Source of the DNA: Marvinbryantia formatexigens
GTDB lineage: Bacteria; Bacillota; Clostridia; Oscillospirales; Ruminococcaceae
Direction of reading: 5' to 3'
DNA length: 64,000 nt
Assembly (NCBI GenBank): GCA_021771035.1
Contig: JAETPU010000007.1
Location: forward strand, 7,658-71,657
Within the stretch, counting starts at the first letter, position 1. The number at the start of each line of letters is the position of its first letter. Position numbers and translations under genes: made by a program. Positions 6,072 to 33,100 of the stretch are shown here, one piece after another. A model generated the notes under the pieces. That model saw only the letters and a list, made by a program, of their open reading frames with translations. It did no database searches and was not told where the DNA came from.

Positions 6072-6117
6072 GAAAGAAGCTGATTGTTTTACAACAATCG
6101 GCTTCTTTCGCGTTTTG
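6072..6117 (+). terminator. Long hairpin, terminator-like
   Basis: GAAAGAAGCTGATTGTT / AACAATCGGCTTCTTTC, a 17-bp stem with one G-U pair and a 4-nt loop, followed by GCGTTTTG. Confidence 0.45.
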
Positions 6118-6645
6118 TCCGATAGATATGATGACGTTCGCTTCACGCAAGAGCGGGACGGGCGTCAAAGCGATGTCCAACCAAAACGGCTGTATTGGGG
6201 TAAGGGAGAATCTTTGGCATCATGGGGAGGACAGCGCCGGTATTCTTTCAGCAGAGCCGGCATACAGTCCGGGGCTGCTGGGCAAATCCCGGGTAGTATA
6301 GCTTTTTTCTATAGCAAGTTATGAATTCTAAGTATTTGCTATTTGTATGGTACAGACGTATACTGAAGTTAAAAGAACAGGAACGGTATCCGCTGTACTG
6401 TGGGAAACCGGAAAAAGGCAGGGCTCAACGGTGGCTGTCCTGGTTGGGGTTTATAGCTCTGCCAATACCGTGGTGGGGCAGCCTCTATTCTTGGCTGCCG
6501 CGGCGAATGCTGTCCCGGCGGGAATCTGGAAATACGCGGTTTGGCGGCGTGCAGGGTTTATTCTATGATTGGAAAGCCCGGGCTCCTATCTTAGTGCACG
6601 GTGAAAAAACAGCTGCCAAACAGTGAATGGGGGAGAAAGGAAAAG

Positions 6646-8682: not shown

Positions 8683-10272
8683 GTGGTAAATTTGTCAGTG
8701 AATTCGATTGTTTGGGATAGAGAAACTCACCCCTCGCGTCATGCGGCGGCGGGAGGGACTGAAGCCGATGCGCTCAGGGAATTGGGAATTCCCCAGCTGC
8801 TGTTCAGCCGCAGGGAACTCAGCGATGAGGAAATCCTCGGTTTTCTCAATTGCAAAGGCGGGGATATTGTTCTAAGGCAGGGGGTATTAGAGGAGGCGCT
8901 TCAAAAGGAAGAACTCTCCTCGATTTTTGACGCTCTCCTTCAAAGTATCAGCAAAATAAAACGCTATCTTAAAGAATACAGCATCAAAGATCAGGAAAAA
9001 ATCGTATGCTTCCAGGCCCTGTACCTGCTATTGAGGGAATATGTGCAGATTATTGGGCAGTCCAGAGAACGCTTAGAGTCCGCCGGTGTGAAAAGCCGGG
9101 GGCTGACTAGGCTTTTACACCTATTTAAGGAGTTGTGGGACAGCCAGAATCTCAATGCGCTGCAGGAGAGTTTGTCCCATATCGGGGAGTACTGGAATCC
9201 TCCCAAGATATGTGAATTCGGCCTGAATATTGATTCCGGCTTTCATATCAAGGAAATCACCGTCACCAAGCTGTTCCCGCAGCGGGAATTTGCCGAATCC
9301 GCCTGCTTTTCCAGGCCGACCTATCTGCACAGGGGAACGTCCACCGCCAAACTGCAGTACTACTATTTTAAAAAGCTCAAGAGCCTGCTCAATACAGAGC
9401 TTGGCAGATTGCAGCGGGATCTGAAACCGTTTTCTCCCGAGCTGGTATCGGCGCTGCTGCAGCTGGAGCGGGAATTCACTCTGTATTCGGCGGGGATCCG
9501 TTGGTGCCAAAAGATTCAGCGCAAAAACGCCGTTTTTTGCTTTCCAGCCGTTTCACAGCATACTATCCGATGCCGTGGCATGGCCCTTCCCGAAACAGTG
9601 GAGGCTTTGGAGACTGCGGACAGATACACCGTCGATTTGAAAGACGGGGAAACTGTCTGCATCGTTACGGGGGCGGGCAGCGCCTATAAGGATGGATTTG
9701 CGGCGGCGCTTGGGGCAAACCAGGTGTTGTTTCAGCTGGGGTTCCCGGTGTGCGCCTCAGAGGCGGCCCTTCCGGTTCGGGAGCGTGTATTTACTATTTT
9801 CGCCCAGGGAGAGAGCGAGGACGAGTCCCGGTTCGCCCGGGAGGCCAGATTGACTGCTCAAATTGAGCGGTGCGGCGGGGAAAGCCTTGTTTTGCTCCGG
9901 GATGCCTATACCTCCACCAATGCCCGGGAGGGGGAGAAAATCGCCGCCGAATTGATTGAGGCTGTCACAAAAACCGGAAGCATCGTGGTGTGCTCCACCC
10001 ATTTTGCGAAGCTGGTGTCAGCCCTTGCGGACAAAAACATCCCCTGCGCCAGCTATGTGGCGGCTTCGGGAACGCAGGAGGATGGCTGCGTTGGGAATAT
10101 GCTTCTTCGCGGGGAGCCCTATGCGCTCAGTTATGCCAGGCAGCTTGCCCAAAAGCACAGTTTCACCGTTGAGGCTATCCTGGAAATCCTCAAATCCAAG
10201 GATATGAGCGCAGAGACCAGCGCGAGGCTGCTCAGGGAACTGGCCCTGGCTGAGGAAGGGGGCGCGTTGTGA
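8683..10272 (+). CDS. MutS-domain-V-like protein with degenerate P-loop (start codon uncertain)
   Basis: 529 aa. The C-terminal region aligns with the next gene's ATPase domain. It reads TGAGSAYKDG where the partner has TGANQGGKTV, LLRDAY at Walker B, and CSTHF at the H-loop position. No mismatch-binding or Smr motifs were seen. Confidence 0.65.
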   Translation: MVNLSVNSIVWDRETHPSRHAAAGGTEADALRELGIPQLLFSRRELSDEEILGFLNCKGGDIVLRQGVLEEALQKEELSSIFDALLQSISKIKRYLKEYSIKDQEKIVCFQALYLLLREYVQIIGQSRERLESAGVKSRGLTRLLHLFKELWDSQNLNALQESLSHIGEYWNPPKICEFGLNIDSGFHIKEITVTKLFPQREFAESACFSRPTYLHRGTSTAKLQYYYFKKLKSLLNTELGRLQRDLKPFSPELVSALLQLEREFTLYSAGIRWCQKIQRKNAVFCFPAVSQHTIRCRGMALPETVEALETADRYTVDLKDGETVCIVTGAGSAYKDGFAAALGANQVLFQLGFPVCASEAALPVRERVFTIFAQGESEDESRFAREARLTAQIERCGGESLVLLRDAYTSTNAREGEKIAAELIEAVTKTGSIVVCSTHFAKLVSALADKNIPCASYVAASGTQEDGCVGNMLLRGEPYALSYARQLAQKHSFTVEAILEILKSKDMSAETSARLLRELALAEEGGAL

Positions 10273-22796: not shown

Positions 22797-23423
22797 ATGA
22801 AAATTACATCGTTGGAGCCCTGGAAGGGGACTTTTTATAAGGTGTTCGTTGACGGAGAATACTTTGCCACTTTGGACGCGGAAACTTTGGTGGGGGAACA
22901 CCTGCACACCGGCGTGGAGGTGGATGTCCAGCGCCTTCAGGAGGTTCGGTATGCCAGTGAACTGCGCAGGGCCCGGGAGCGGGCTCTGCACCTGCTGGAA
23001 TACCGCAGCCATACCCGCCAGGAACTGCTGGATAAGCTCCTTCGCAATTATGAGCGGGAGATCTGTGAAGATGTGGTGCAGCGCCTTGAGGAGATTGGGC
23101 TGATTAATGATGAGGACTATGCCCGGCGCGCGGCTGCAACGATGCTGGGGGCCAAGCACTATGGAGAGATGAGGGTGCGCCAGGAGCTGCTGCGCCGGGG
23201 TATCGAGCGGGAACTGGTGGAAACCGTACTGGAGGAATTGGACTGGGATCCCCACCAGGAGCTGTACGAGTTGGTACAGGCCAAGTATCTGAGATTGTGT
23301 GTGGATGAGAAGGGGGTCCGCAGAGCGACCAATGCTCTTTTGCGGCTGGGATATTCCTATTCTCAGGTGCGGGACGTGCTGCGGGAGTTTATGGAGGAGG
23401 ATTCTTGGCAGGGGGTTGAATAA
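22797..23423 (+). CDS. recX: Recombination regulator RecX
   Basis: 208 aa helical-repeat protein directly downstream of recA. GAGAGGAGG RBS. ...RALHLLEYRSHTRQELLDKL..., ...INDEDYARRAA... repeats are typical of RecX. Confidence 0.82.
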   Translation: MKITSLEPWKGTFYKVFVDGEYFATLDAETLVGEHLHTGVEVDVQRLQEVRYASELRRARERALHLLEYRSHTRQELLDKLLRNYEREICEDVVQRLEEIGLINDEDYARRAAATMLGAKHYGEMRVRQELLRRGIERELVETVLEELDWDPHQELYELVQAKYLRLCVDEKGVRRATNALLRLGYSYSQVRDVLREFMEEDSWQGVE

Positions 23424-23507
23424 GCGCTGGGGCTTGAACGAATCTGTGTCGAATGTAAGAATTTAAAGGGGAAGGGTAAAATGGACGTTTCCCTTCCTTT
23501 AAAACTG

Positions 23508-23990
23508 TGTTATAATAACCTCACGCCATGCACCAAAGCAGAGCTTTGAACTGCGCAGTTCGGAATGGGATTCCGAACTACAGAGAGAACATTGTAGCAG
23601 TTTGGTATGAAAGCTTCGCTTTCTGATTGATGCTATAATAACCTCACGCCATGCACCAAAGCAGAGCTTTGAACTGCGCAGTTCGGAATGGGATTCCGAA
23701 CTACAGAGAGAACATTGCAGTAGTTTGGTATGAAAGCTCCGCTTTCTCTTTATGCTGTAATAACCTCACGCCATGCACCAAAGCAAAGCTTTGGACTGCG
23801 CAGTTCGGAATGGGATTCCGAACGACAGAGAGAACATGGAAGCGTTAAGGAATGAAAGCTACGCTTTCCGATTGATACTATCATAACCTCACGCTGTTAT
23901 CCAAATCGAAGATTTGAACTGCAGGGAGAACATGGAATCAATGGGAAGGATAGCTGTGGTTTCAAATTGAGGGCTGAACTGCCTCACGCC
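23508..23990 (+). repeat. Tandem array of a ~123 bp unit (three good copies plus one degenerate copy)
   Basis: Units start at 23511, 23634, 23756 and 23879. The first 84 nt of units 1 and 2 are identical. Each good unit carries TGnTATAAT (TGnTGTAAT in unit 3), a perfect 10-bp hairpin AGTTCGGAAT-GGG-ATTCCGAACT and a GAAAGC-NNN-GCTTTC hairpin. Confidence 0.9.
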
Positions 23991-24303
23991 GTAAACTAAG
24001 GTAAGGCTTGGGAGTATGGGATCGATTGAACCGCGGCGGGAGCTTTTCTGGGAGCTGGCCGAAGGCGAGGGAGGAATCGCTGAATTGGCGGGTACAAGGT
24101 CATTTATCTGCTAGAAGAGCCGCTGGAAGGGAACGAGTGCAGCATCTCTATAGCTTTGGCGCGGGGACACTCACCCCATGGACGGTTTTTGCACAGGACA
24201 TGATAAAAACGCACCGCGCGGTGCGAAAAATTGGGCGGTTAATCCACCGGCGGGTTTCGCCCGGACAGTAAGAAAATATGAGCCGGAGATAGGTGGAACA
24301 AGA

Positions 24304-25653
24304 ATGGCAGTAAAGGTTGGGATGGTATCCCTGGGATGTTCGAAAAATCAGGTGGATGCAGAAATCATGCTGGCATCTTTAAAGAAAGCTGGATATGAGC
24401 TCTGTACAGATTCCGGCAGCTGTGATGTGGTTGTCATCAACACCTGTGGGTTTATCGAGGACGCCAAAAAAGAGGCCATTGAGAATATTCTGGAGTTCTG
24501 CACCCTGAAAAAGGAGGGGCGGATCAAGGCGGTGGTTGTCACCGGATGCCTGGCCCAGCGTTATCAGATGGAGATCGCCAAGGAGATACCCGAAGCGGAC
24601 GTTATCCTGGGGATTGGCTCCAACGATCAGCTGGTGGATGCCATTGGGCGCGCGCTCAACGGCGAAAAGGTGTATTCCTTTGAAGATAAGGAAAAGGCCC
24701 CCATGAGCGGTGAGAGGATTCTCTCCAACCTGCCGTTTTTTGCCTACCTGAAAATTGGGGACGGATGCAGCAACAACTGCTCCTACTGTGCCATTCCGCT
24801 GATCCGCGGGCGTCTGCGCAGCCGGCCTATGGAAGAAATTGTAGAGGAAGCCCGCCATTTCGCACAGTGCGGCGTTACGGAAGTCATTGTGGTGGCGCAG
24901 GATCCCACCCGGTATGGGGAGGATCTCTACGAGGGCCGGCGGATGCTGCCCGAATTGCTGCGCCGTCTGTGCGCGATTGAGGAGCTTAAATGGGTACGGG
25001 TGCTCTACTGTTATCCGGAGCGCATCACCGACGAGCTGCTGGATGTAATGGCCAGTGAGGAAAAGCTGGTGAAGTATCTGGATATCCCCATCCAGCATGT
25101 CAGCGCGCCGGTGCTGAAACGGATGTACCGTCCGGGTAACCGGGAATCCTTAACGGCCCTGATGAAAAAAATCCGGGAGCGTGTGCCGGGCATTGTATTG
25201 AGAACGACTTTAATTACCGGTTTCCCCGGAGAGACTGAGGAAGACTTTACCGAACTGTGTGAATTTGTCAAAGAGGTGAAGTTTGAACGCCTGGGCTGCT
25301 TTACCTATTCTGCGGAGGAGGGAACCCCTGCCGCGCAGTTCCCGGATCAGGTGGATGAAGAGGTAAAGCAGCGGCGCGCCGACGTCATCATGCTGGAACA
25401 GAACAGGATTGCCGAGGAATTTAACACGGCCCAAATTGGAAAAACTTTGGAAGTTGTGGTGGAGGGCTTTGACCGCTATGCGGAGAGCTTTTTTGGCCGC
25501 AGCGCCATGGATGCTCCGGATATCGACGGCAAAATCTTTTTTACAGCGCCCAAGGATATCAAGCTGAGAGTGGGGGACTATGTTCCGGTACTCATCGAGG
25601 ATGTTATGGATTATGATCTGCTTGGTGTCCTGGTGAGTGAAGAGGAGGAATAG
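24304..25653 (+). CDS. rimO: Ribosomal protein S12 methylthiotransferase RimO
   Basis: MAVKVGMVSLGCSKNQVDAEIM (UPF0004 domain), radical-SAM CSNNCSYC, and a C-terminal TRAM domain (GKTLEVVVEG...APDIDGKIFF). Adjacent to pgsA, as is common in Clostridia. Confidence 0.9.
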   Translation: MAVKVGMVSLGCSKNQVDAEIMLASLKKAGYELCTDSGSCDVVVINTCGFIEDAKKEAIENILEFCTLKKEGRIKAVVVTGCLAQRYQMEIAKEIPEADVILGIGSNDQLVDAIGRALNGEKVYSFEDKEKAPMSGERILSNLPFFAYLKIGDGCSNNCSYCAIPLIRGRLRSRPMEEIVEEARHFAQCGVTEVIVVAQDPTRYGEDLYEGRRMLPELLRRLCAIEELKWVRVLYCYPERITDELLDVMASEEKLVKYLDIPIQHVSAPVLKRMYRPGNRESLTALMKKIRERVPGIVLRTTLITGFPGETEEDFTELCEFVKEVKFERLGCFTYSAEEGTPAAQFPDQVDEEVKQRRADVIMLEQNRIAEEFNTAQIGKTLEVVVEGFDRYAESFFGRSAMDAPDIDGKIFFTAPKDIKLRVGDYVPVLIEDVMDYDLLGVLVSEEEE

Positions 25654-32887: not shown

Positions 32888-33034
32888 AGAATCTCCCCTT
32901 TCTGTATAGGCTGCTGGAAAAAGCCTGTCCGCAATGGGGACAGGGCGTCGGTTTCACAAAACGCTGCGCTCGCTGGAGAGCGGGCGGCTGTACGGGGCAT
33001 TTGAGAACCGGCGGGATGGTTTCCAATCTTTATT

Positions 33035-33100
33035 ATAGATAAAACCTATTGATATTATCTGATAATACTATTTTTATTATAGGTAATCAAGTGCTATAAT
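33035..33100 (+). promoter_or_regulatory. Divergent control region: LysR-type T-N11-A box and extended -10 promoter
   Basis: ATAGATAAAACCTAT (an ATAG-N7-CTAT dyad) at 33035-33049, and TGCTATAAT at 33092-33100. About 150 nt upstream of the CoADR-like gene. Confidence 0.4.

Follow-up and report, generated by a model that had tools for sequence, protein, structure and literature searches.

The window (the whole 64,000-nucleotide stretch of DNA that was analysed) carries a tandem repeat in the intergenic region between recX and rimO, which consists of four units (123, 122, 123 and 95 bp) and a promoter-less relic and spans positions 23505-24046. Pfam searches identified recA and recX upstream of this array and rimO and pgsA downstream, in agreement, as regards recX and rimO, with the initial annotation, in which the units had been described as possible multicopy small-RNA genes. 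Three hairpins recur in the units: P2 (CCAAAGC-NNN-GCTTTGG), which is the most conserved and was found at 23533-23548 and at equivalent positions in every other unit, H2 (AGTTCGGAAT-GGG-ATTCCGAACT) and H3 (GAAAGC-NNN-GCTTTC). The features of the region are listed below, with the scores obtained for R1, the model of the family described further on.

22797-23423, plus strand: recX (Pfam RecX_HTH1/2/3), in the 208-amino-acid form as called in the same-species contigs L001 and L042-L045
23468-23500, plus strand: hairpin GGAAGGG...CCCTTCC after recX (inverted repeat I15), with a short U tail
23505-23627, plus strand: unit 1, 123 nt; TGtTATAAT 23508-23516; P2 23533-23548; H2 23557-23579; purine tract AGAGAGAACATTG 23582-23594; H3 23609-23623; R1 24 bits, E 7e-5
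23628-23749, plus strand: unit 2, 122 nt; TGcTATAAT 23631-23639; P2 23656-23671; H2 23680-23702; purine tract 23705-23717; H3 23732-23746
23750-23872, plus strand: unit 3, 123 nt; TGcTGTAAT 23753-23761; full P2 CCAAAGC-AAA-GCTTTGG 23778-23794; H2 23802-23824 (one mismatch); purine tract 23827-23839; H3 23854-23868; R1 30 bits, E 8e-7
23873-23967, plus strand: unit 4, 95 nt, without H2; weakened -10 box TATCAT 23879-23884; P2 CCAAATC-GAA-GATTTG 23901-23916 (a G-C pair replaced by a compensated U-A pair); CAGGGAGAACAT 23922-23933; R1 64 bits, E 1e-17
23968-24046, plus strand: promoter-less relic of a fifth copy, CCTCACGCCGTAAAC..., with the 3' end GATTGAA
24047-24303, plus strand: rest of the long rimO leader, conserved among strains and without an Rfam match
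24304-25653, plus strand: rimO (Pfam UPF0004/Radical_SAM/TRAM), in the same orientation as the array and followed by pgsA

The start of rimO was placed at 24304, and not at the first ATG of the open reading frame, by comparison with contig L002 and an exact-protein look-up. The hairpin after recX had been taken for the recX terminator; its tail holds only three U residues, it was missed by the terminator scan and it is a weak terminator at best.

The coordinates of the array and its TGnTATAAT or TGnTGTAAT boxes were confirmed by reading of the sequence and by TRF, with the -10 boxes of units 1-4 starting at 23511, 23634, 23756 and 23879. TRF reported the stretch 23511-23894 at a period of 123 (3.1 copies, 90% matches, score 615), well ahead of every other repeat in the window. 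Alignment of the units showed that units 1 and 2 are identical over 84 nt counted from TATAAT, as had been stated, and that unit 4 is without 27 nt present in units 1-3. H2 and H3 were found in the units for which they had been described, H2 of unit 3 with one mismatch. The units (95-123 nt) abut directly and have no unique spacers, so the earlier exclusion of a CRISPR array holds. The relic had been overlooked; it was detected as a fifth copy of direct-repeat family D2 (23982-24013, at 75%) and as a weak R1 match at 23983-24046. Searches for the unit motifs gave no match in 100 dinucleotide-preserving shuffles of the window, and no second site of the unit was found elsewhere in the 64 kb with either the motif or model R1. 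It was also observed that GAACTGCGCAGTTC (23548-23561 and 23671-23684) is a perfect palindrome which overlaps the 5' arm of H2, so that AGTTC can pair upstream or downstream and alternative hairpins are available in units 1-3.

The locus was compared among contigs of the same species, the exact RimO protein being present in at least 24 contigs, mostly from human-gut assemblies. Copy number was found to vary, with one, two, three or four units in different contigs. The distance from the recX stop to the rimO start is 513 bp in two contigs with one unit (L045 and L051), 608 bp where two units are present, both without H2 (L043), 635 bp where one H2 unit precedes unit 4 (L042), 729 bp where a consensus unit, an H2 unit and unit 4 follow one another (L044) and 880 bp in the window, with three H2 units and unit 4. 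Unit 4, the relic and a 336-nt leader are kept in all alleles, and no strain allele is without a good unit. Unit 4 is the closest of the window's units to the family consensus described below, and the first unit of L044 is a perfect family core (R1 77 bits). RecX relatives at 45-48% identity have a recX-rimO gap of 28-110 bp with no R1 match.

H2 corresponds to a 27-nt segment, GCAGTTCGGAATGGGATTCCGAACTAC, which varies within the species and is not found in the family. Since it is present in some same-species units and absent from others, GCAGTTCGGAATGGGATTCCGAACTAC is an insertion polymorphism, and units 1-3 are therefore derived copies. The statement that unit 4 has lost the central hairpin thus stands as regards the absence of the 27 nt and is reversed as regards direction. 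Over its first 7 nt, GCAGTTCGGAATGGGATTCCGAACTAC is the reverse complement of the GAACTGC before it, a relation which suggests an origin by a fold-back copying error. Units 1-3 also have two mismatches in P1, the inner helix of the core described below, and reach only 24-30 bits with R1 because P1 is broken and H2 inserted; these units may be in decay.

Several short-read contigs (L001 and L046-L050) end within the array, and the array explains the breaks between recX and rimO in short-read assemblies of this species. Contig L001 (SRR13048121; 8721-8748) ends 31 nt into a unit-4-type body after the first promoter, at the exact point where either a TATAAT or a TATCAT unit could precede the next 31-mer, so that the sample probably holds two such units or two strains. 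The idea that the tandem copies were made or collapsed by the assembler draws on these breaks and is scarcely credible, given the fixed-position differences between units and the five independent assemblies which span the locus with differing unit sets; the differences at the junctions also go beyond assembly collapse, since the 12 nt common to the unit types at the join are too short for collapse in a de Bruijn graph.

One genome per GTDB species was scanned with a pattern tolerating the differences among units 1-4. Fifteen species gave matches, at 16 loci, of which two are in Clostridium merdae; the others belong to Faecalispora sporosphaeroides, to MAGs of Oscillospiraceae and to one MAG each of Tissierellia and Sedimentibacter. 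A looser pattern applied to JGI/ENA metagenomes gave 22 further loci (38 in total), and viral contigs gave no match to the module, which led to rejection of a phage origin. The members share about 60 nt of the form (TRTGn)TATAAT-AACCTCAC-GCCGY-NNN-CCAAAGC-NNN-GCTTTGG-RCGGC-TGAGAGAACATTGAA, with invariant spacing to the -10 box and a mean column identity in the core of approximately 88% across orders. The TG together with the -10 box, the last loop base and most of the GAGAGAACATTGAA tract are conserved though they lay outside the search patterns, the GAGAGAACATTGAA tract having been wholly unconstrained in the first search pattern only.

Tandem arrays of two to four units recur at other genes and in other species, which bears out the earlier description of the units as multicopy. 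Four copies were found in L012 (period 121 bp) and L028 (period 123 bp), three in L010 (period 119 bp) and two, at periods of 101-134 bp, in L007, L011, L014, L019, L024, L031 and L004. Arrays precede tig in L012 (four copies) and L007 (two copies), and degV in L010 (three copies) and L014 (two copies). Decayed internal units were seen in the window and in L028, L010, L012 and L014. The array-bearing records with a strain designation are Faecalispora sporosphaeroides DSM 1294, whose array precedes degV, and Clostridium merdae Marseille-P2953. Two sites per record were found in C. merdae (before tig, L012, and before degV, L014), OBWS01000159 and OFCQ01000227. Two metagenome contigs each carry two opposed module sites 2-3 kb apart (L028, 6848-6901 minus strand and 9250-9672 plus strand; L036, 3583-3760 minus strand and 6107-6379 plus strand), one site lying before a YfhO-GT2 gene and the other before a 391-amino-acid gene without a Pfam match.

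A dispersed MITE-like repeat had been named earlier as a result that would speak against the small-RNA reading. Dispersal was found in part at family level, two unrelated sites of the module being present in several contigs and in one isolate genome, but neither terminal inverted repeats nor other MITE features were present, and a MITE was rejected as the palindromes are internal only. In some loci TGATATAAT occurs on both sides of the units and is best read as a partial next unit.

Searches of Rfam 15 gave nothing at the gathering threshold for the window or for the element in 32 loci, and at E<=10 the array and canonical members gave chance matches only (best E 0.2), so that no known family was recovered. 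Sequence-string searches of the literature found nothing relevant to the motif, nor was the motif found in the first 200 of the 408 supplementary files of a human-microbiome structured-RNA catalogue. The module is thus a widespread family for which no description has so far been found, although it may sit unnamed in a large candidate list.

Gapless alignment of 36 cores (A3) gave a fold composed of P1 (GCCGY/RCGGC), a 3-nt bulge on one side only and P2. Pairing was observed in 95.8% of the P0/P1/P2 cells, as against 34-45% when the partners were slid, and six pairs showed double changes. The covariation score observed was reached by none of 500 shuffles; the outcome was similar with 20 sequences. 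Covariation is confined to P1 and P2, and the outer pairs (CUCA with UGAG) never vary. An analysis of covariation in H2 and H3 had been suggested earlier; covariation was found in the P1/P2 core, and the two hairpins then singled out do not belong to the conserved portion. Those two hairpins do not serve as the basis of a model, H2 being a polymorphic insertion and the GAAAGC hairpin lineage-specific, and P2 had been overlooked. The segment CACCAAAGC, previously put forward as a single-stranded seed, is the 5' arm of a conserved helix.

A conserved, single-stranded purine tract, UGAGAGAACAUUGAA, follows the hairpin on its 3' side and contains a Shine-Dalgarno-like GAGAG with an NUG a few bases on and no open reading frame. 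Coding units were rejected, as open reading frames are not conserved and the NUG frame stops at once (TTG-TAG in unit 1 of the window, TTG-TAA in L006). A target search with the purine tract, performed in the window only, gave complementary sites at chance level. In two sub-families the 5' hairpin and purine linker are followed by a closing stem around three hairpins, with 6 compensated pairs in this 3' domain in the L005-type sub-family and 10 in the L006-type. In the window species the 3' domain is reduced to one weak, lineage-specific hairpin, H3.

Sequences resembling promoters accompany the units throughout, with an extended -10 box of the kind seen in Gram-positive sigma-A promoters. A TG one nucleotide upstream of the -10 box was present in 22 of 31 first units and 10 of 16 internal units, and 32 of the 47 units have an exact TATAAT. 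A -35 match of at least 4/6 was found in 26% of first units, compared with 11% in the background, and several single-copy loci have -35 boxes at 16-18 bp (TTGCAA in L010 and L015, TTGTCA in L014, TTGGCA in L021 and TTGCCA in L030). The proposal of multicopy RNA units is upheld as regards promoter boxes of their own, which are fixed before the covarying hairpin in more than 40 copies from many species, and not as regards the hairpins chosen for it. Because the extended -10 box directly abuts AACCTCAC, transcription would start about 7 nt past it, most probably on an A that follows the box by seven bases and lies at the base of P1 (A23523 in unit 1).

The plus strand is probably the transcribed one, as judged from the extended -10 boxes, the -35 boxes, the downstream terminator-like hairpins and a weak lean of the 3'-domain wobble pairs to that strand. 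The call rests on promoter orientation and terminator-like hairpins because the wobble pairs of the core show no bias: 41 cores (492 pairs) gave 7 G-U, 10 A-C and 8 other mismatches, and the use of U-G pairs in the core as plus-strand evidence was dropped. Same-strand terminator-like hairpins were called downstream in L016, L018 and L019, in the L006-type sub-family, and seen by eye in L015 and L017; none was called downstream in L022. In the window, a lenient terminator scan called H3 of unit 2 and no other H3.

In the TATAAG-type sub-family the opposite strand was found to carry TTGGAA-16-TATAAT, formed by the reverse complements of the P2 arm and ATTATA. These sites (L019, 2170-2197; L016, 4889-4916; L022, 482-509) are aimed at a divergent gene (hprK, malQ), and the region looks like a bidirectional promoter with overlapping -10 boxes.

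The genes downstream of the module are functionally unrelated: rimO in the window and, elsewhere, tig, degV, bipA, hprK, spoIIR, azlC and genes for a sugar-binding protein, a hydrolase, GT2, YfhO-GT2, MoxR, a NuoE-like ferredoxin, an M16 peptidase and an oxidoreductase. No tRNA or rRNA was found downstream of the module, with the exception of two tRNAs in L020; L013 has a tmRNA without relation to it. At approximately four fifths of sites (our own tally, from naive ORF calls) the downstream gene is co-oriented with the module. The unit stands alone in L016, L018, L019 and L022, where the next gene downstream is encoded on the other strand. At many loci a second TGnTATAAT follows the RNA and would serve the downstream gene, and no gap separates the last unit from the tig leader in L012 and L007.

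The downstream genes fall into no consistent class, and part of the copies point at convergent genes. A riboswitch or leader specific to one gene was therefore ruled out, which leaves two readings, namely discrete small-RNA genes and a reusable cassette of promoter plus leader. A type III toxin-antitoxin ToxI array was also rejected, as the downstream gene is rimO and the units are three times the length of ToxI repeats and have promoters. Comparison by eye with a LexA box, a cre site and rRNA boxA was negative, GAAC-N6-GTTC, AAAGC-N3-GCTTT and the reverse complement of GAGAACAT not fitting the consensus spacing or orientation.

We consider it somewhat probable that the array is a tandem amplification, variable in copy number, of a structured small-RNA unit with a linked promoter, the unit acting as a discrete RNA and belonging to a family outside Rfam, and that the leaky stack also promotes rimO-pgsA. 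Each unit would fire an RNA of about 90-120 nt with a 5' hairpin cap. Since H3 terminates poorly, some transcription would continue across the following units and the 336-nt leader as far as rimO-pgsA. The array would then be a multicopy small-RNA locus and a promoter stack for rimO at once, with a dose that may shift from strain to strain through unequal recombination between units. Units 1-3 would be young, derived copies, with the palindromic 27-nt H2 between P1 and the purine tract and two P1 mismatches. Several observations weigh against this small-RNA reading. H3 is weak, with a single unit passing even the lenient terminator scan, and units 1-3 score poorly with R1, maybe through decay. 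The bias towards co-orientation would be explained by a promoter or leader role no less well than by free-standing sRNA genes, and the core wobble pairs carry no strand signal. AACCTC is invariant yet lies upstream of the predicted start, which a purely RNA-level function leaves unexplained, and the complementarity of the purine tract in the window does not exceed chance.

Tandem multicopy small-RNA loci are known from Listeria (LhrC1-4) and Nostoc (the NsiR1 repeats). The module resembles these in its head-to-tail units of about 100 nt, each with a promoter-like box and hairpins, and in the presence of more copies elsewhere in the genome. One of the features by which such loci are recognised, a promoter belonging to each copy, is present at the level of sequence, TRTGnTATAAT being invariantly placed before the units. 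It differs from them in having no sequence or Rfam relationship to either, in the fixed distance from the -10 box to the predicted RNA start, in weak or absent terminators and in arrays which usually face a co-oriented gene.

A possible but, in our estimation, rather unlikely explanation is that the module is a reusable promoter and 5' stabiliser, in which an extended -10 box, a 5' stem-loop and a tract resembling a ribosome binding site shield the mRNA, the RNA itself has no function and duplication raises rimO-pgsA expression. The distance between hairpin and -10 box is fixed, as a 5'-end protector needs, the Shine-Dalgarno-like GAGAG and the NUG open no conserved ORF, and the merging of the last unit into the tig leader and the frequent co-orientation with unrelated genes (on naive ORF calls) are what would be expected of such a cassette. 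Stabilisers of Gram-positive mRNA 5' ends include the Bacillus aprE leader, with its stem-loop and ribosome binding site, and the cryIIIA STAB-SD. Like these, the module has a stem-loop right at the predicted 5' terminus and, after it, a Shine-Dalgarno-like tract that opens no ORF. Unlike the module, the known stabilisers are single and gene-specific, are neither multicopy, tandem nor conserved across orders, and have no structured 3' domain.

The cassette reading also fits the putative mobile promoters of Nijveen, Matus-Garcia and van Passel (2012; PMC3575422), highly similar promoter-region sequences which occur across taxa and are not in Rfam. The class requires sequences that lie before non-homologous genes of one genome to be at least 80% identical over at least 50 nt (PMC3575422). 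Such identity was found between the tig and degV sites of C. merdae and within OBWS01000159 and OFCQ01000227, with the published window of -150 to -50 from the start codon applied loosely. The module is likewise found before unrelated genes in distant taxa; it differs in its covarying RNA structure and its tandem amplification, mobile promoters being defined by sequence reuse only, and no mobility mechanism was seen. Three observations argue against a simple stabiliser. The covarying three-hairpin 3' domain of two sub-families, followed by a second TGnTATAAT or a terminator-like hairpin, would be superfluous, the stand-alone copies in L016, L018, L019 and L022 face convergent genes, and the near-invariant unpaired bases across orders exceed what simple 5' protection needs.

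Strong promoters about 100-120 bp apart which feed one unit, with C-rich sequence between -10 box and start, are also a feature of the tandem P1/P2 promoters of rRNA operons. The module loci differ from these in having no rRNA or tRNA downstream and a structured RNA in each promoter copy.

Returning to the small-RNA reading, if the units are transcribed as proposed, they represent an uncatalogued structured RNA family with a core kept from Oscillospiraceae to Tissierellia, a degree of conservation which would imply a conserved cellular partner. The near-invariance of unpaired bases across orders likewise suggests such a partner. It would also be a clear natural case in which RNA or promoter dosage is altered by tandem copy number in a human-gut species. 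A more speculative extension, which we hold to be doubtful, is that the module is a riboregulator spanning orders of Clostridia, whose 5' hairpin and SD-like/NUG tract act as a decoy or dock for a conserved partner such as the 30S subunit or a global RNA-binding protein, its dose tuned by copy number, and that the arrays are contingency loci in gut strains.

Strain-variable copy number and unit type, the decayed internal units in the window and four other loci and the relic copy would also be produced by a selfish or neutral minisatellite, generated by slippage or unequal crossing-over, in which the extra copies have no function. The intergenic minisatellites known as MIRU-VNTR are comparable in being tandem repeats between the genes of a cluster with copy number varying among strains; the module differs from them in consisting of a promoter and a structured RNA conserved far outside the species. 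We judge this explanation improbable, in view of the core identity across orders with its compensatory changes, the retention of a good unit in every strain allele and the lack of both terminal inverted repeats and viral-contig matches.

It is very unlikely that the element acts at the DNA level, whether as protein-binding palindromes of an operator- or centromere-like kind or as a terminator for the opposite strand. The helices consist almost wholly of Watson-Crick pairs and show no wobble bias, both P2 (7-3-7) and H2 (perfect, 10 bp) are palindromic, reading of the minus strand puts UUAUUAUA after the hairpin, and the opposite strand of the L006 type has the TTGGAA-16-TATAAT directed at a divergent gene. 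A one-sided 3-nt bulge between P1 and P2 is nevertheless unsuited to a symmetric dimer site, the stem bases covary instead of staying conserved, H2 is polymorphic in the species and absent from the family, and no partition or plasmid genes are nearby. An opposite-strand terminator clashes with the orientation of neighbouring genes and the conserved TG-n-TATAAT. The array of protein-binding sites offered as an alternative in the initial annotation accordingly found no support.

Three further observations were made in the window. Immediately 5' of rimO (24205-24250) lie two adjacent hairpins, CGCACCGCGCGGTGCG with TTTTTATC and GGTGGATTAACCGCC with CAATTTTT, which resemble intrinsic terminators of the minus strand; the hairpins are conserved from strain to strain, no gene of the minus strand terminates at this point, and they may be a piece of the rimO leader or the marker of a short antisense RNA. 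Also in the rimO leader lies GCTTTGGCGC (24147-24162), whose complement GCACCAAAGC forms the P2 5' arm of units 1-3 (inverted repeats I16-I18); it could be a further unit relic or a long-range pairing partner. Lastly, TRF identified a 22-bp tandem repeat at 33031-33086, with 2.5 copies, 75% matches and the consensus TATTATAGATAAAACCTATTGA.
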